Positions 1,747 through 59,262 of a stretch of DNA of 64,000 nucleotides are shown here, one piece after another (the first letter of the stretch is position 1; each line of letters starts with the position of its first letter). The stretch is from a bacterium (lineage in GTDB: Bacteria; Patescibacteriota; Patescibacteriia; Patescibacteriales; GWC2-42-12): assembly GCA_030650415.1 (NCBI GenBank), contig JAUSEG010000017.1:16885-80884 (forward strand), in the 5' to 3' direction. A model generated the notes under the pieces. It was not told where the DNA came from. It saw nothing but the letters and a program-made list of their open reading frames with translations, and did not search any database. The position numbers and the translations under genes are program-made.

Positions 1747-2079
1747 CTAGACTATATCATATCTGGGCATAATATCAATAGCCGGTTCTTCGTAGGGGTG
1801 GAATTTTTTTACTTCGGAGATAATTTTCTCCACCAGATTTCGATGGCAAATAATTTCAATTAATTCTTCTTTCACTTCTTCCGGCAGTCCAATCTGGCCG
1901 ACAGACGGCTGCGCTCCTGGCTTCGGAAGGAAACGTCCGGTTTGTTTCATTGAACTGCTGCAATGTTCATAGTTTCCCTGCTGGCCGGCTCCAGCCCTGC
2001 CCAAAATTTCGCGGATTTTATCCGCGGCTTCAACCGGAACGGCAATACGGATTTTTACGAAAGCAGATTCTTTCAGCAT
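1747..2079 (-). CDS. Small protein resembling the PII-like insert module (COG3323) of NIF3/YqfO-family proteins
   Basis: The track ORF is 1747..2157. I prefer the internal ATG at 2079 (MLKESAFVKIRIAVP...) because it removes a 71-nt overlap with 2087..2824. GNYEHCSS...GRFLPKPGAQPSVGQIG..EEV.E..IE pattern recalled from COG3323 proteins. Confidence 0.5.
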   Translation of the reverse strand: MLKESAFVKIRIAVPVEAADKIREILGRAGAGQQGNYEHCSSSMKQTGRFLPKPGAQPSVGQIGLPEEVKEELIEIICHRNLVEKIISEVKKFHPYEEPAIDIMPRYDIV

Positions 2080-2086
2080 AGGAAAT

Positions 2087-2824
2087 TTATTTTTTGCCGT
2101 ATATCCCTTCTTCAATTTGTCGAACGCCTTGCTTCTCGGTTTCAACTGTTTTAGCATAGGCGTCTGAATTTCTCATGGCTTCTATGATTTTTTCGTATTT
2201 AGCATCTCGCGATATCAATATTTCTTCCGCTGGCAATAGGCGAATCTGTAATTCTTTTCCCTTTTTAAAGTAATCCCAAGATTCAAAAAAATCTTTATCA
2301 TCGGGTTTCAATCTTTTTGCCAATTCCTCTAAATGATCTAACATCGACCGGACTCTTGGGAAATGAATCTCGCCGGTAAGTATCGCAACGCTTCTCCAGC
2401 TGTTCCTTCTCGCCATTTTAACCATTTCAAGCAATTCGGTTAAAGTATTTGTAGATTTTTCCTCCAACTCAATAGTTTTTTCTGATACCCCCAATCTCTT
2501 AAGTTCTTGCGCGTATGTTTCGGCGAGAGTAGGTTCGTCTTCGTAGTCGTAGCTTGTGGTTACGAGTTTTATTTTAGGAAAAAATTGTGAAATTTCCGCG
2601 GCCGCGATAACGCGAGCATGTCCACCGCCCATGGAACCATGATTATCTAAACTACTGTAAGAATCAGCACGATACATTTTTTTTTCACCAAAATTTTTAT
2701 TCCTAGCGCTTGCGGATAAAATAAAAATAGCCTTTGCATCGTCTACCATTTCACCGTATTTTTTGACTTTATTTTTTTCAGTACTTTGTTCTAACTTAAA
2801 ATTTTGTAGTTCATTTTTTCTCAT
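2087..2824 (-). CDS. DUF218 (YdcF/SanA/ElyC-like) domain protein
   Basis: 245-aa ORF. GGGHARVIAAAE ... EEKSTNTLTELLEM ... VAILTGEIHFPRVRSML matches the S-x-N-T and H-x-x-R signatures I associate with DUF218. Confidence 0.5.
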   Translation of the reverse strand: MRKNELQNFKLEQSTEKNKVKKYGEMVDDAKAIFILSASARNKNFGEKKMYRADSYSSLDNHGSMGGGHARVIAAAEISQFFPKIKLVTTSYDYEDEPTLAETYAQELKRLGVSEKTIELEEKSTNTLTELLEMVKMARRNSWRSVAILTGEIHFPRVRSMLDHLEELAKRLKPDDKDFFESWDYFKKGKELQIRLLPAEEILISRDAKYEKIIEAMRNSDAYAKTVETEKQGVRQIEEGIYGKK

Positions 2825-3183: not shown

Positions 3184-4797
3184 ATGGTGAGACAAAGTCA
3201 AATTTTTGCAAAGATAATAGTATTCTTTCTAATATTACTGCTGGCTCAAATGGCCGGTGGTTTTATTTACGCTTCTGAACCGGCGGCGCAAGATGAAAAT
3301 TCGTTTTTCATTAATATTAATAAGGCCACCGCCGATAAGGGCTATGCCATAAAAGCTTTGGCCGGTCAGTTTAGCCTTTCTTTACCCAAGGGAATTTTAA
3401 AAGACGCTACCGGAGTGGAAATAAAAAAAGTTAATGAAGATATGGATTTGCCTTGGCAGCTGGAAAAATTAAGCGAAATTTATCAGTATGAAATTATTAA
3501 TAAAACGGCTTATGACGGTAAAAAACCGCTAACGGTTGAGATTAAATATAATCAAGCGTCTTATTACTATAAGCAAGTTTATTTTTACGACAAAAATTAT
3601 TCTTCTTGGCGGCCGCTTTCCTGCAAGGAAATTTTTGACAAAAGTTCCGTTAGATGCGAAGTGCCGTTTAATTTCGCCCGATTGGCCGTCTTCGCCAATC
3701 CCAATGTCTTAGCCATCGGCAAAGCCAGCTGGTATAGCTACAAAAAAGGCAACTTTACAGCCTCGCCGGATTTTCCCAAAGGTTCAAAATTGCGTGTCTA
3801 TAATTTGGATAACGGTAAATTTGTAGATGTGGTAGTCAATGACTTCGGGCCGGAAAGAAAATTGCATCCTGATCGGGTGGTTGACTTGGAAAAAACCGCT
3901 TTTAGTAAAATTTCCAATATAAAACAGGGAACCATTAAAGTCAGAGTTGAACTCATTTCTCTTGGAGTTAAGTCCGAAAGATTATTTGGCATAAGCAATC
4001 AGGGAGCAAAAAACCAACCGGTGATAACGGCTAAGTCGGCTATTGTTATGGATGAACAGACCGGAGATATTCTATGGCAGAAGAACGCGACCAGCACTCT
4101 ACCTTTAGCCAGTCTTACAAAACTCGTTGCTATTAGAGCTTTTTTAGATACCAGGCCGAGCTTGAATAAAATAGTCGCTTACAGTATTAGAGATGAAGAA
4201 TATAATTATGAATATGTAAATAAATGGGAGTCGGCCAGGTTAAAATTAGCCGACGGCGATACTCTAACCATCGAAGATTTACTTTACGCGGCCTTAGTGG
4301 GTTCAGCCAATAACGCGGTTGAAACCCTAGTGCGCTCGAGCGGTTTAACCCGCAGTGAATTTATTAAGAATATGAATGATCTAGCGGCCGGTTGGGGCGC
4401 GTCAGCGACTCATTTTATCGAGCCGACCGGCTTGGCGCTGGAGAATGTGAGTTCGGCTTATGATTATGCTATAATAAGTAAGGAGGTTTATACTCATCCG
4501 ATTATTCAGAAGGCCAGCACCATGTATAAATATAAATTTACCACTCTGAACACTAATAAAGCCCATACCATAGTTAATACCGATAAACTTTTAGAAGTCA
4601 GCAGTTTAAACATCACCGGCTCTAAGACCGGCTACTTGGACGAAGCGCAATATTGCTTAATGGCCAGAGCTGCCAATAAGAAAGGCGGGCAAGTTATCGC
4701 CGTTATCATGGGAGCGGATAGCCGAGAGAAAAGCTTTGCCGAAACCGAAGAGCTTTTAAAGTATGGATTAAAAAATTGGACGCTGGTTATTAAATAA
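3184..4797 (+). CDS. Fusion protein: RlpA-like double-psi beta-barrel domain plus D-alanyl-D-alanine carboxypeptidase (peptidase S11, PBP5-like)
   Basis: N-terminal hydrophobic signal. ASWYSYKKGNFTASPDFPKGSKLRVYNLDNGKFVDVVVNDFGP is RlpA/DPBB-like. The C-terminal half has SLTK (SxxK), SANN (SxN) and KTGY (KTG). Confidence 0.8.
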   Translation: MVRQSQIFAKIIVFFLILLLAQMAGGFIYASEPAAQDENSFFININKATADKGYAIKALAGQFSLSLPKGILKDATGVEIKKVNEDMDLPWQLEKLSEIYQYEIINKTAYDGKKPLTVEIKYNQASYYYKQVYFYDKNYSSWRPLSCKEIFDKSSVRCEVPFNFARLAVFANPNVLAIGKASWYSYKKGNFTASPDFPKGSKLRVYNLDNGKFVDVVVNDFGPERKLHPDRVVDLEKTAFSKISNIKQGTIKVRVELISLGVKSERLFGISNQGAKNQPVITAKSAIVMDEQTGDILWQKNATSTLPLASLTKLVAIRAFLDTRPSLNKIVAYSIRDEEYNYEYVNKWESARLKLADGDTLTIEDLLYAALVGSANNAVETLVRSSGLTRSEFIKNMNDLAAGWGASATHFIEPTGLALENVSSAYDYAIISKEVYTHPIIQKASTMYKYKFTTLNTNKAHTIVNTDKLLEVSSLNITGSKTGYLDEAQYCLMARAANKKGGQVIAVIMGADSREKSFAETEELLKYGLKNWTLVIK

Positions 4798-4812
4798 ATT
4801 CTTATTTGCATT

Positions 4813-5493
4813 ATGATAAAGTTAGAAAATATTTCAAAAATCTATCCGCCGGATATTAAAGCTCTATATAAAGTTAACCTGCATATTAAGCCGGGCGAAT
4901 TTGTTTCCATCGTCGGCCGATCAGGCACGGGGAAAACTACCTTAGTTAAACTTTTAATCGGCGAAGAAAGGCCGAGCCAGGGGAAAATTATCGTTGGCGG
5001 CTGGGATATTACCAATATCGGCCAAGCGGAAGTTCCGGTTTTGCGTCGGCAGATTGGCGTAGTTTTTCAGGATTTTAAATTGCTTAACCGCAAGACTTTG
5101 TTTGAAAATGTCTGCTTCGCTTTGCAGGTTTGCGGCGAACCGCAGAGTAAGATTAACGGCATTGTGCCCCAAGTTCTAAAGATTGTCGGTTTGGAGAATA
5201 AGATGCATCGCTATCCCTCAACCGTTTCCGGGGGCGAGCAGCAGCGCGCCGTGATCGCCCGCGCCTTAGTGCATCGGCCAAAGATTCTTTTAGCCGATGA
5301 GCCGACCGGCAATCTGGATTCTATCAACGCCGATGAAATTATTGAAATTTTGCAGAAGATTAATAAATTCGGTACGACCGTTCTGCTTGTTACCCATAAT
5401 CGTGATGTAGTTAATAAATTAAGAAAAAGAGTTATTACCATTGAAAATGGGCTAATCGTCGGCGATCAAGCGGTGGGAAAATATATATTATAA
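4813..5493 (+). CDS. ftsE: Cell division ATP-binding protein FtsE
   Basis: Walker A GRSGTGKTT, signature SGGEQQR, Walker B LLADEPT, 226 aa, upstream of ftsX. Confidence 0.9.
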   Translation: MIKLENISKIYPPDIKALYKVNLHIKPGEFVSIVGRSGTGKTTLVKLLIGEERPSQGKIIVGGWDITNIGQAEVPVLRRQIGVVFQDFKLLNRKTLFENVCFALQVCGEPQSKINGIVPQVLKIVGLENKMHRYPSTVSGGEQQRAVIARALVHRPKILLADEPTGNLDSINADEIIEILQKINKFGTTVLLVTHNRDVVNKLRKRVITIENGLIVGDQAVGKYIL

Positions 5494-8463: not shown

Positions 8464-8645
8464 GTCGTCGTTTATTGATTTAAACTTATCTTCAAGACAT
8501 AATTATTATAGATTAATAAGCCGGAAGTTACAATATATGGGCAAAATCAAAGAAAACATTTTCGAACTCCCAATAAATCGCTTACCTAACGAAAAAGCAG
8601 GCGTTTTATCACCTGCTCGTTCTGCATTGTTCGGGGACCAGGATT

Positions 8646-8798
8646 TTCACCCCGTCAAATAGTAAAGTTTTCTTCACATCGTTCGGGGACCAGGATTCGA
8701 ACCTGGATTAATGGCTTCAAAGGCCACTGTCTTACCATTGGACGATCCCCGAACGATATGAAGAAATTATATTAATAATTTTTATTTGACGGGGCAGG
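8646..8798 (-). mobile_element. Hairpin-bounded 153-nt element carrying a complete tRNA-Gln (family E, copy 1)
   Basis: Sense-strand termini are CCTGCCCCGTCAAATA ... TATTTGACGGGGTGAA (12-bp inverted repeat). The inner 13-bp stem TTCTTCATATCGT/ACGATGTGAAGAA flanks the tRNA. The termini match 22573..22676. Confidence 0.6.
8682..8752 (-). tRNA. tRNA-Gln (anticodon UUG)
   Basis: Acceptor TCGGGGA/TCCCCGA, anticodon arm GTGGC-CTTTGAA-GCCAT, T-arm CCAGG-TTCGAAT-CCTGG, 71 nt, discriminator A. Confidence 0.9.
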
Positions 8799-9104
8799 CC
8801 TGGATTAACGGCTTCAAAGGCCGCTGTCTTACCATTGGACGATCCCCGAATGTTGAGATGATTGTTAAATTATCTCTGGAAAACTAAGCAAAATCCCGAA
8901 AACTCGGGATATTGTTATCATAAAATATTATTTGATTTTTGTAAACCCCAGTTAAATATTTTTTAGCTATTATTAGCTTCGCCATAATAAAAGCGTATGT
9001 TTTGCTATCTGCTGTTGATATATTTATTTTTAACGGAGCGGGGTTGTTCTGGATTTTATTTTGAGCTATGATATAATATAAGATATAAAAAATAATTATA
9101 TTAT

Positions 9105-22394: not shown

Positions 22395-22589
22395 ATGGCA
22401 AATAATATGACAATTGATGAATTGGCCGGAATGATAAAAGGAGAATTTGATAATGTTGGTGGAAAATTTGATAAAGTTAACGGTCGTTTTGATAAAATTG
22501 AAAGTGAAATGGCAAAAGGCTTTAAAGAATTAAAGGATGATCATGAGAAGCTTGAATTAAAAGTATCCAATGCCTGCCCTGTTAGATAA
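22395..22589 (+). CDS. Small coiled-coil protein, interrupted near its 3' end by a 104-nt element
   Basis: 64-aa ORF. The last 4 codons plus stop (CPVR*) lie inside element 22573..22676. See 22677..22747 for the displaced remainder. Confidence 0.6.
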   Translation: MANNMTIDELAGMIKGEFDNVGGKFDKVNGRFDKIESEMAKGFKELKDDHEKLELKVSNACPVR

Positions 22590-22676
22590 GTTTGATTTAT
22601 TGGAAAAATAAATTATTTAAATATATCGCTGTGATTAATTTGTGAAATATAAAGTCAATTTATCTAACGGGGTGAA
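22573..22676 (+). mobile_element. Hairpin-bounded 104-nt element (family E, copy 2, no tRNA)
   Basis: Termini CCTGCCCTGTTAGATAA ... TTATCTAACGGGGTGAA match those of 8646..8798, with two compensatory arm changes. The inner ATATCG/TGTGA flanks are also shared. Confidence 0.6.
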
Positions 22677-36514: not shown

Positions 36515-36603
36515 TTTGCTTGCCCCGTTAAATTAATTATTTTCGGGGGAGGTTATTTATTGATAGGTATTTAATCGTTGTTATTTTTCGTCTATAGATT
36601 AGT

Positions 36604-37314
36604 TTATTTAACCGGGGTAAATTTAAAAGCTGATAAAGCCTGTTCGGCTTCCTTGGTGAATTCAGCCGACTCCTCGCTGTATTTTAAAATATAATTAAGA
36701 TTATTTTTTATTAATAAAATATAAATATTTTTTATTTTGGCCATAAAGTTATTTAAAGTTAACTTCGTTCCGGCAACCCCGGCCAGAACAATCGGCTCTT
36801 CGGTTAAAGAAACCAGTCCGGGATATTTTTTAGCCTCGGCTTTAGCCTGTTGAATTTCATTGTTGGTTTCGCCGGATATAACCTCAATAGTTATGGCGCC
36901 TTGCCCGTTTTTTGGCGGTACCGCGCCTAAGGAGATATTATTTTCCGCGCGAATTCTTATCGGCCAGTCCGGAGGGAAGTTAATTTCGTAAAAATAAGTA
37001 TAATTCTTATAATAGCCCGGCTTCGCATTAGGAATAGTTTGTTTTTCTACCGGTGGTGTAACCCTTTTTACTTCTTCGTTCGGCGCGGCTGTCGGATCGG
37101 TTTTTTTTGAAGCGGTTTGATTATTACTAACCGACGCCGTCTGATTTGAAGATCTGACGTCGGGGGTTTTATGAAGGTTAGCCGCTTTAGCTAAATCTTG
37201 CCTGACTTTATCATCTAAATATTCCGTGTAGCCTAAATAACCTAAAGCTATCAGGCCTAAAATTATCACTATATTTATAATTGAGATTCCGCCCCTGAGG
37301 TTTTTCATTACCAT
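36604..37314 (-). CDS. Hypothetical membrane-anchored protein in pilus cluster
   Basis: 236 aa with an N-terminal hydrophobic helix after RGG. No recognisable domain. Confidence 0.4.
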   Translation of the reverse strand: MVMKNLRGGISIINIVIILGLIALGYLGYTEYLDDKVRQDLAKAANLHKTPDVRSSNQTASVSNNQTASKKTDPTAAPNEEVKRVTPPVEKQTIPNAKPGYYKNYTYFYEINFPPDWPIRIRAENNISLGAVPPKNGQGAITIEVISGETNNEIQQAKAEAKKYPGLVSLTEEPIVLAGVAGTKLTLNNFMAKIKNIYILLIKNNLNYILKYSEESAEFTKEAEQALSAFKFTPVK

Positions 37315-59201: not shown

Positions 59202-59262
59202 TTAGCACTCCCTTGACCCCGCATAACTCGCTACGCTCGTAAGCGGGGCAGGCAAGAGTGCT
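59202..59262. promoter_or_regulatory. Degenerate second CIRCE with its spacer expanded by a GC hairpin
   Basis: TTAGCACTC (59202..59210) ... AGAGTGCT (59255..59262) are separated by 44 nt containing the hairpin ccccgc...gcgggg (59217..59248). Confidence 0.45.

Follow-up and report, generated by a model that had tools for sequence, protein, structure and literature searches.

A complete tRNA-Gln gene nested in a split tRNA-Gln gene, the probable cargo of a hairpin-ended mobile element in Patescibacteria-like DNA

A tRNA-Gln(UUG) gene of a groundwater bacterium is split in its T-loop by a 153-nt insert that itself contains a complete tRNA-Gln(UUG) gene. The locus occupies positions 8630–8849 of a 64,000-nt stretch of contig JAUSEG010000017.1 (GenBank assembly GCA_030650415.1); this whole 64-kb stretch is referred to as the window. 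The 153-nt segment is probably a non-autonomous, hairpin-ended mobile DNA element, of a kind found on Patescibacteria-like contigs, that breaks an essential tRNA gene and carries the replacement. An earlier note on this DNA had proposed that the outer gene is inactivated by an element bringing its own tRNA. The proposal is supported by empty sites in relatives, by further copies of the element family and by the exclusion of known types of interruption.

Structure of the nested tRNA-Gln locus

All tRNA features at 8630–8849 are read on the minus strand, which is the tRNA sense strand. The locus begins with a 51-nt 5' fragment of the outer tRNA-Gln(UUG) (8799–8849), which spans nucleotides 1–53 in tRNA numbering and ends with the T-stem strand CCAGG. 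The 153-nt insert follows (8646–8798). It is sequentially composed of a left end, CCTGCCCCGTCAAATA (8783–8798), a left arm (8753–8782), the inner or cargo tRNA-Gln(UUG) gene (8682–8752), a right arm (8662–8681), and a right end, TATTTGACGGGGTGAA (8646–8661). The left arm is predicted to contain a small A/T hairpin and the 13-nt strand TTCTTCATATCGT, which pairs with the cargo trailer. The right arm comprises CGATGTGAAGAA, the 3' strand of the stem that extends the acceptor, and an 8-nt linker. The outer gene resumes with a 16-nt 3' fragment (AAT-CCTGG-TCCCCGA-A; 8630–8645) that runs from nucleotide 58 to the discriminator. The split point of the resident tRNA-Gln(UUG) gene is between G53 and A58, and its promoter and terminator are intact.

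The cargo gene is complete and canonical, with 71 nt including the discriminator and the anticodon stem GTGGC/GCCAT. ARAGORN and Rfam report this gene alone. Its Rfam score of 65.3 bits equals that of the intact gene of a related locus, L089 (loci and proteins are designated here by L and P numbers). The outer 5' piece reaches 23.2 bits at a permissive Rfam threshold, under the cut-off of 29. The outer 3' fragment is identical to the cargo gene at 16 of 16 positions. The rejoined outer gene differs from the cargo only at positions 27 and 41, a compensatory pair that gives the outer allele the anticodon stem GCGGC/GCCGT.

The ends of the insert, CCTGCCCCGTCAAATA and TATTTGACGGGGTGAA, form a perfect 12-bp inverted repeat, or 14 bp when two G.U pairs on the tRNA-sense strand are counted. 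Inside them, TTCTTCATATCGT and ACGATGTGAAGAA prolong the acceptor stem of the cargo by 13 pairs, one of them G.U and the discriminator base included. The nested fold, a tRNA in a hairpin in a hairpin in a tRNA, has a predicted energy of -94.9 kcal/mol (z = -8.2), and none of 200 shuffled sequences is as stable. The earlier note had described this architecture. All its coordinates and sequences for the split gene, the insert, the 12-bp repeat and the 13-bp stem are confirmed, as is the compensatory difference at positions 27 and 41; the ARAGORN call and Rfam score bear out a complete inner tRNA, and the very stable predicted fold agrees with the nested structure.

Rfam at the gathering threshold detects no intron or ribozyme in the window and 10 related loci, but only tRNA. 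A search of 8550–8960 at E ≤ 1 likewise returns no intron or ribozyme. Besides tRNA, it gives one match to a small RNA, SpF41, which overlaps the cargo tRNA and, at 27.5 bits, stays well below its threshold of 52.

Of 35 related genomes, 15 have a tRNA-Gln(UUG) gene upstream of the HtrA gene and oriented like it. In the closest relatives, which are Candidatus Falkowbacteria, namely L083 and L088 (GW2011_GWA2_41_14; HtrA 84% identical in both) and L089 (HtrA 83% identical), a single uninterrupted tRNA-Gln stands at the syntenic site, between the shared promoter and leader and the HtrA gene. The outer halves, taken by the earlier note for one divided gene, are contiguous in these relatives. The L089 gene is exactly the outer 5' fragment, TTCG and the outer 3' fragment, and its first 51 nt are the outer 5' fragment. 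Given these intact syntenic genes, the outer halves are therefore the resident gene and the inner gene is the newcomer. The insert replaces the T-loop bases TTCG (nucleotides 54–57) of the resident tRNA-Gln. The cargo stem GTGGC/GCCAT is absent from all relatives examined.

In two relatives, L004 and L005, a complete tRNA-Gln is followed by a homologous trailer, whose last bases are ACGGGGTGAA, and by a 3' tRNA remnant; neither has a 5' fragment. Other arrangements are seen at related loci. In L018 (4527–4572, minus strand; Parcubacteria GW2011_GWC2_42_12), the syntenic tRNA-Gln ends after nucleotide 47 with a 32-nt deletion relative to L083, and no second tRNA-Gln is present within the 5.8-kb locus. 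L013 (4163–4500, minus strand) carries two tandem units of ~163 nt upstream of a complete tRNA-Gln. Each unit opens with a ~27-nt tRNA-Gln 5' fragment that bears a 25-nt GC-rich hairpin in its D-arm, and L008 and L009 have one similar fragment. L029 (about 76–170), L031 (about 4597–4700) and L036 (minus strand) display an inverted T-arm copy, AAGGATTCGAAC, downstream of tRNA-Gln, followed in L029 and L031 by a 3' tRNA-Gln remnant that starts after ...GGCGAA/AATCC. The arrangement of L029, L031 and L036 may be a divergent variant of the same scar type.

An independent Logan assembly of SRR13727527 provides two contigs that carry the flanking genes and match part of the region. One begins inside the cargo tRNA and is identical to the window through the right arm, the right end, the outer 3' piece and the terminator. 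The other stops 26 nt into the outer 5' piece, just past the outer-specific GCGGC. That the contigs stop inside the repeats is expected, because short-read graph assemblies break at repeats.

The element family and its genomic setting

Metagenomes were scanned for the tRNA T-arm GGTTCGAATCC followed, after a gap of 17–47 nt, by TTRACGGGGTGAA. The scan yielded 15 loci; in each of those examined, this motif forms the right end of an insert, or of a scar, within a tRNA gene. On independent metagenome contigs, inserts in genes for tRNA-Gln, -Pro, -Ala and -Val are delimited by the family end motifs, which are C[C/T]TGCCCCGTYAAAT at the left end and ATTTRACGGGGTGAA at the right end. The left-end consensus C[C/T]TGCCCCG[T/C][T/C]AAAT is found in L092, L094–L097, L099–L102 and L105–L108, with the variant CTCG in L097. 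The partner left motif is present at the 5' junction wherever that junction survives. At the right junction, ACGGGGTGAA is invariant in L004, L005 and L092–L106. The earlier note had taken the segment for an element with termini of its own, and other copies with conserved ends are present both in the window and in independent metagenomes.

The amino-acid type of the cargo equals that of the host tRNA in all scan loci examined. Ala is inserted in Ala at L095/L100 and L102, in the anticodon loop, and at L103. Val(CAC) is found in the D-loop of Val(CAC) at L094/L096, and Pro(UGG) in the anticodon loop of Pro at L092 and L101. Gln resides in Gln in the anticodon loop at L097, in the D-loop at L099, L105, L106 and L098/L104, and at L093 with the ends opposite to the tRNA orientation. 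When the outer genes are rejoined with the lost bases supplied, ARAGORN recognises 9 of 10 as tRNA, 8 of them with the amino-acid type of the cargo; the L092 call hinges on the assumed filler bases, and the L105 outer gene is broken.

Elements can be stacked. L101 contains three 5' fragments, each with a left end, then one intact tRNA-Pro, and then two right ends with matching 3' fragments, so that nesting reaches at least three levels. Each level possesses its own mutually complementary ends, one with TTAAAT and the next with TTAGAAAT. The end pairs also covary between elements (CCCCGTCAAATA/TATTTGACGGGG, CCCCGTTAGAAAT/ATTTCTAACGGGG and CCCCGCACCTTTT/AAAAGGTGCGGGG). Because the left and right ends covary across levels and elements, their pairing is conserved.

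An identical 72-nt cargo is present in L097 and L005, within different resident alleles. Homologous arms occur at the T-loop site (the window and L004) and at the anticodon-loop site (L097 and L005): the right arm of the window element is homologous to L004, L005 and L097, and the last part of its left arm to L097 and L005. As identical cargo sits in different resident alleles and homologous arms at two loops, the spread appears to have been horizontal. In other genomes, outer copies decay or are deleted. L004 keeps a remnant, the 5' part is gone in L004, L005 and L103, the L105 outer gene is broken, and level B of L101 contains mismatches. The outer genes of L092, L098, L106 and L108 hold 2–4 extra hairpin inserts. 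Cargo-free hairpins of 23–40 nt with the same or variant ends are found in the D-, anticodon and T-loops of the outer genes of L033, L092, L098, L106 and L108.

Target bases are missing at every junction, 2–4 in each case, relative to empty sites or the cargo. The lost bases are TTCG in the T-loop of the window gene, TTCA in the T-loop of L092, TG in the Gln D-loops and in the Pro and Gln anticodon loops, and TNG, one codon, in an open reading frame (ORF) of the window at 22573. In 7-nt loops, the final three bases are retained (AAT, ATT, GGA or CAT). In L093, where the ends are inverted relative to both tRNAs, the CA lost in the tRNA sense is TG on the element's own strand. Because 2–4 target bases are lost per insertion, simple excision cannot restore the outer tRNA. 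The elements are also asymmetric between strands. The strand read from left end to right end folds at -30.1 versus -15.6 kcal/mol for its complement in one comparison and at -25.4 versus -9.6 kcal/mol in another, with 7–8 G.U pairs. A single-stranded form, either RNA or single-stranded DNA, therefore matters.

A strict paired-end scan of the window finds two canonical copies, versus none in 50 shuffles. The second copy is a 104-nt hairpin without cargo (CCTGCCCTGTTAGATAA...TTATCTAACGGGGTGAA; 22573–22676, plus strand), inside a small conserved ORF that starts at 22395. This ORF encodes a coiled-coil protein, deposited as a truncated 64-residue protein (P0219); its homologues are 72–86 residues long and continuous. 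The homologues read ...KVSN-V-AYRFEL... with an extra valine, and one codon (3 nt) has therefore been lost at the site. A likely third copy of 103 nt (CTTGCCCCGTTAAATT...ATTTAACCGGGGTAAA; 36519–36621, plus strand) lies at the 3' end of a minus-strand ORF and was missed by the strict scan because of a bulged C. A likely minimal copy of 40 nt (CCTGCCCCGC...GCGGGGTCAA; 59213–59252, minus strand) sits in the loop of a terminator-like hairpin, AGCACTC...GAGTGCT. The two likely copies have the variant right ends CGGGGTAAA and GGGGTCAA, respectively. A near-identical hairpin ~50 nt from the minimal copy is without an insert.

Longer relatives encode a protein. In L099, L105 and L106, the family ends enclose a GIY-YIG ORF together with the cargo tRNA-Gln (Pfam PF01541, E = 2e-14 and 1e-13). 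Two further loci reached through protein homologues, L107 and L108 (on contigs of 145 and 98 kb), are of the same design. This GIY-YIG lineage is fixed at one D-loop site, TCTAA/TG/GTAGG, which is identical in all five loci. The protein has ~80 residues, with little beyond the catalytic domain and no further DNA-binding domain. No NCBIfam model and no solved structure were found for it by sequence. Its homologues form about 98 clusters.

The termini of the homologues are informative about their context. The C-terminal tails (...AAGSSNGRT...LGSNPSPAAL..., ending in NLTG or KFGGVK before the stop codon) are the cargo tRNA-Gln and the right end read in frame. Several N-termini (...RLTCPAKF) represent read-through of the outer D-arm and the left end. 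Among the proteins P0121–P0217, 34 homologues were examined in sequence. In most of them, the ORF as called continues in a single frame through the cargo tRNA-Gln (72 nt) and terminates within the right end or shortly after it, at the TGA of GGGGTGAA or the TAG of the outer D-arm; examples are L099 189–551 and L106 2715–3122. L098/L104 retain only the 3' end of the GIY-YIG ORF, suggesting that ORF-less copies arise by internal deletion. The 64-kb window contains no GIY-YIG homologue and the 153-nt element has no ORF. The element is therefore non-autonomous.

Viral contigs were searched with the right-end pattern, the paired ends, the GIY-YIG protein and the left end plus T-arm. These scans gave nothing or chance matches (L090, L091, L109 and L110), and carriage by phages was rejected on this basis. 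One of the viral contigs, L090, contains a 140-bp element (3834–3973) bounded by a 23-bp inverted repeat without mismatches. The first 11 nt of that repeat, CCCCGTCAAAT, are also those of the repeat in the window element; the viral element encloses no tRNA, and the resemblance is probably accidental. Full-text literature searches turned up no account of nested tRNA genes or of the family ends, and the family is apparently widespread and previously undescribed.

The host is bacterial, as PBP2, DnaK, CTP synthase, PilB and similar genes are encoded in the window. The HtrA gene lies 0.6 kb from the tRNA, and its product has its nearest homologues in Candidatus Falkowbacteria and the Patescibacteria group. 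The neighbours of the element encode FtsX, an ArsP-type permease, a zinc-ribbon protein, ArsR, a 105-residue ORF product, HtrA and ABC transporter components. No integrase, transposase or nuclease gene is found within 5 kb of the element.

The resident transcription unit, also on the minus strand, has a promoter, TTTACA-17 nt-TATGAT (8917–8945), that matches the consensus at 10 of 12 positions, and an intrinsic terminator with a 9-bp stem followed by a T run (8595–8618). The intact single tRNA-Gln genes of relatives are also preceded by this promoter and leader. A terminator-like hairpin, ATCCCGAGTTTTCGGGAT then TTTTGCTTA (8893–8910), is located between the promoter and the tRNA. Its form TCCCGA-NNNN-TCGGGA then TTTTGCTTA has an invariant stem and a variable loop in L003–L006, L083, L089 and L097. 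A hairpin of this kind within a tRNA leader resembles an intrinsic terminator and may therefore act as an attenuator. In L089, the tRNA-Gln leader contains an inserted near-perfect long hairpin of ~170 nt (2001–2170, minus strand). Together with the tRNA, this hairpin folds at -105 kcal/mol (z = -10), and it has no Rfam match. The left end of the hairpin repeats the resident leader sequence ATAATTTAACAATCAG in inverted orientation, and the core is 85% identical to a leader segment of L010 (about 4785–4856).

Proposed mechanism and alternatives

If the 153-nt segment is a mobile element that breaks a tRNA gene and supplies a substitute, the resident promoter would transcribe the 5' fragment, the element and the 3' fragment through to the resident terminator. 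The two long stems, of 12–14 bp in the paired ends and 13 bp in the acceptor extension, would present the cargo pre-tRNA for release by the usual bacterial processing enzymes, RNase P and RNase Z. Release could follow cleavage of the stems by RNase III, which cleaves rRNA processing stems. The cargo would then serve as the tRNA-Gln(UUG) of the cell. The outer gene is presumably dead: it lacks four T-loop bases, and in no member of the family would removal of one contiguous segment yield a normal loop.

For mobility, the GIY-YIG nuclease would break T(N0-2)G on the left-end-to-right-end strand, usually in DNA encoding a hairpin loop, and the element would be inserted or copied in with the loss of 2–4 target bases. 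Short copies such as that of the window would be mobilised in trans. Insertion in a single-copy tRNA gene would be survivable only with a working cargo of the matching type, which would explain why cargo and target agree. Once inserted, the cargo would be essential and could not be lost. Repeated invasion of the current working copy would produce a nested series, and later loss of the 5' fragment and left end would leave a replaced gene that bears a scar of the right end, of the kind found in L004 and L005.

A broader proposal, to which we give slightly less than even weight, is that these elements constitute a new mobile class, characterised by strand-specific hairpin units, a minimal GIY-YIG nuclease as the sole protein, insertion at T(N)G and a drive that breaks and rescues tRNA genes. 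The targets of such a class would be mostly DNA encoding RNA hairpin loops, including tRNA D-, anticodon and T-loops, terminator loops and possibly rRNA stem-loops.

Several points weigh against a mobile element with this mechanism. There is no nuclease or transposase gene near the element and no GIY-YIG homologue in the 64 kb, and mobilisation in trans is assumed. We know of no GIY-YIG protein that acts as a transposase, and the cutting of tRNA genes or element ends by the present one is only proposed. The T-arm sequence of the cargo equals that of the target, and the model does not account for immunity to re-cutting. The outer fragments of the window copy show no decay, and the death of the outer gene therefore cannot be proved from sequence alone. 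The strand asymmetry points to a single-stranded intermediate that the model leaves unspecified. In addition, all data are metagenome assemblies.

The strongest competitor, although itself unlikely, is homing instead of transposition, with the family spreading through homologous repair alone. A tRNA-specific GIY-YIG enzyme would cut the intact gene, and repair would proceed from the nested donor allele. The outer fragments would then be homology arms, as in the intronless homing of T4 SegB, and the ends would be inherited baggage, for example RNA processing stems. SegB is a GIY-YIG enzyme with a 27-bp site that contains the tRNA T-stem-loop motif (PMC2330249). The tRNA-Gln elements with a GIY-YIG gene all sit at one D-loop site, and the N-terminal ...RLTCPAKF recurs in at least six further homologues. 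The cargo type always equals the target type, and L004 and L005 are the products expected when one broken end invades the cargo of the donor. However, elements with homologous arms and cargo are present in two different tRNA-Gln loops, and cargo-free copies with these ends lie in a protein gene, in the loop of a terminator and at an intergenic site. Both end orientations occur (L093), and the ~80-residue protein has no DNA-binding domain beyond the catalytic domain. Furthermore, the cargo bears the target sequence, and a sequence-specific enzyme would cut its own rescue copy.

It is considerably less probable still that the element is an intervening sequence at the RNA level, removed by splicing or by RNase III without ligation, with the outer gene also functional and two tRNAs made per transcript. 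This view fits the very stable nested fold, the G.U pairs of the stems on the transcribed strand with sense folding better than antisense, the undecayed outer fragments in the window, and the abundance in Patescibacteria of introns and of non-intron rRNA insertions (PMC13011429, PMC11270868). Exact excision, however, leaves a 3-nt T-loop, and the anticodon-loop cases would give loops of 5 or 9 nt. Splicing that keeps TGAA, for a 7-nt loop TGAAAAT, was considered and rejected, as U55 and C56 are absent and the same rule leads to 9-nt anticodon loops elsewhere; TGAA as tRNA sequence was also rejected, being the element's own end in every context. A bulge-helix-bulge geometry cannot be drawn at the junctions, and no ribozyme or intron model matches. 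Outer genes elsewhere decay, become truncated and gain inserts, L093 has its ends in the opposite orientation, and the genes on either side of the 36519 copy run antisense to it. A local rearrangement, either a tandem tRNA-Gln duplication with deletions or an integrase island scar, is very improbable. The left end, CCTG-CCCCG, does resemble the T-stem and acceptor 3' strands, and the outer 5' piece with the left end scores 23.2 bits. The 16-nt 3' repeat begins in the T-loop, as is said of T-loop-type integrase att sites. Against such an origin, the end motifs are found again around unrelated tRNAs and outside tRNA genes, there is no integrase gene within 5 kb, integrase sites leave no 51-nt 5' fragment, and long complementary flanks are unexpected from deletions (z = -8.2). 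The family evidence already contradicts it, and the view of the earlier note that this is not a simple tandem tRNA duplication is upheld. A variant with three decayed tandem tRNA copies was likewise rejected on the recurrence of the ends with unrelated tRNAs and at non-tRNA sites. Least credible of all is a repeat-induced chimera of two tRNA-Gln loci. The region does contain 51-nt and 16-nt repeats at which short-read graph assemblies break, but the 3' junction and the start of the outer 5' piece are reproduced in the independent Logan contigs, the architecture recurs on independent contigs of several other metagenome assemblies, and the outer and inner alleles are distinguished by the compensatory pair.

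Comparison with known systems and significance

The earlier note had set the arrangement apart from miniature inverted-repeat transposable elements (MITEs), group I introns and integrase att sites. The comparison agrees, as at least one defining feature of each is absent. Like MITEs, the elements have terminal inverted repeats (12 bp; 14 bp with G.U pairs) whose two ends covary across the family. They are small and ORF-less (153, 104, 103 and 40 nt), with two strict and two variant copies in 64 kb, and look like deletion derivatives of longer ORF-bearing relatives (L098/L104). Unlike MITEs, they show no target-site duplication but a deletion of target bases. Between the same ends, longer relatives carry a gene for a GIY-YIG nuclease; this is not a known transposase family, and the window has no such gene. 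Rickettsia palindromic elements, which reportedly insert inside genes, are similarly short and ORF-less with inverted-repeat ends, and they too, like MITEs, occur in several copies per genome and can sit inside genes. The present elements differ from both in their strand-asymmetric hairpin and in a cargo that appears to be a functional tRNA matched to the target.

Integrase islands and prophages are said to insert in tRNA genes and to restore the gene from attP. They share with the element the tRNA-gene targets (often the anticodon or T-loop), a carried tRNA sequence that compensates, and a 3' remnant. Such islands are kilobases long, carry only the 3' part of the tRNA, encode a tyrosine integrase, recombine without base loss and do not leave a 5' fragment behind. 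The present element carries a whole tRNA; a 51-nt 5' fragment remains, bases are lost, the ends are inverted repeats and no integrase is present. The element works most like a target-restoring invader of tRNA genes, yet the whole gene is carried and is nested in a loop. IS200/IS605 elements have an HUH (Y1) transposase and separate subterminal hairpins, and insert 3' of a fixed short motif without base loss. In the present family there is no such ORF, the ends pair with each other and bases are lost, and the strand-asymmetric hairpin is the sole common trait.

The logic of destroying an essential gene while carrying a working copy, so that the element cannot be lost, is shared with synthetic Cleave-and-Rescue (ClvR) and with toxin-antidote addiction. 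ClvR is engineered, with Cas9 acting in trans and a recoded rescue copy. In the element, by contrast, the insertion itself disrupts the target and the rescue copy is not recoded.

Archaeal tRNA introns of the bulge-helix-bulge type also occur in D- and T-loops. Like group I introns, they interrupt tRNA genes and are overlooked by standard annotation. Such introns are spliced out and the tRNA is restored, whereas the element has no ribozyme core and exon bases are missing. In the predicted fold, the junction is a 2 x 5 internal loop without the 3-4-3 motif of an archaeal-type intron, and the host is bacterial. Group I introns are common in tRNA genes of Patescibacteria, the same phylum (PMC13011429). 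In Caldiarchaeum, a tRNA-Thr 5' fragment is separated from the complete gene by a recombinase-encoding element (PMC3293823). As here, a complete tRNA is preceded by a 5' fragment of its own type, which is ascribed to a mobile element. The Caldiarchaeum case differs in being archaeal, in its 1.8-kb length with a recombinase and in the bulge-helix-bulge introns of the inner gene, and it lacks conserved hairpin ends and nesting in a loop.

T4 SegB is a free-standing GIY-YIG homing endonuclease in a tRNA gene cluster, with a site that includes the T-stem-loop motif; its gene and neighbouring tRNA genes are co-inherited at the expense of the tRNA region of the recipient (PMC2330249). Both systems physically link a GIY-YIG nuclease gene to tRNA genes. 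The SegB gene, however, lies between genes, and T4 has no hairpin ends, nested tRNA, cognate rescue copy or ORF-less miniatures. Regarded as a homing cassette, the window copy is without the nuclease ORF, which only relatives possess. Empty sites exist and the GIY-YIG lineage is fixed at the D-loop, yet homologous ORF-less elements occupy two loops. Insertions that are neither group I nor group II introns, some encoding GIY-YIG proteins, are found in rRNA genes of the candidate phyla radiation (CPR), as are many short ORF-less insertions at the tips or bases of stem-loops (PMC11270868). The CPR insertions share with the element family the phylum and GIY-YIG ORFs in non-intron insertions. No end motifs, tRNA targets or cargo are reported for them.

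If the proposed reading is true, the element would be a natural selfish element that inactivates an essential gene while carrying a rescue copy, a logic otherwise seen in synthetic drives and toxin-antidote systems. It would build Russian-doll tRNA genes and drive tRNA-gene replacement across species. For bacteria whose tRNA sets are minimal and single-copy, it would also provide a concrete mechanism by which tRNA genes turn over and are replaced horizontally. As for annotation, only the innermost gene is detected by tRNA finders, the outer fragments resemble att remnants or pseudogenes, and the called GIY-YIG ORFs include tails that are in reality tRNA sequence read in frame. The ~80-residue GIY-YIG nuclease, with its strand-specific hairpin ends, is a small and testable system that may act on structured DNA. 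Within the same phylum, the family may also explain two kinds of insertion reported in rRNA genes: the short uncharacterised ones and those that encode GIY-YIG proteins but are not introns.

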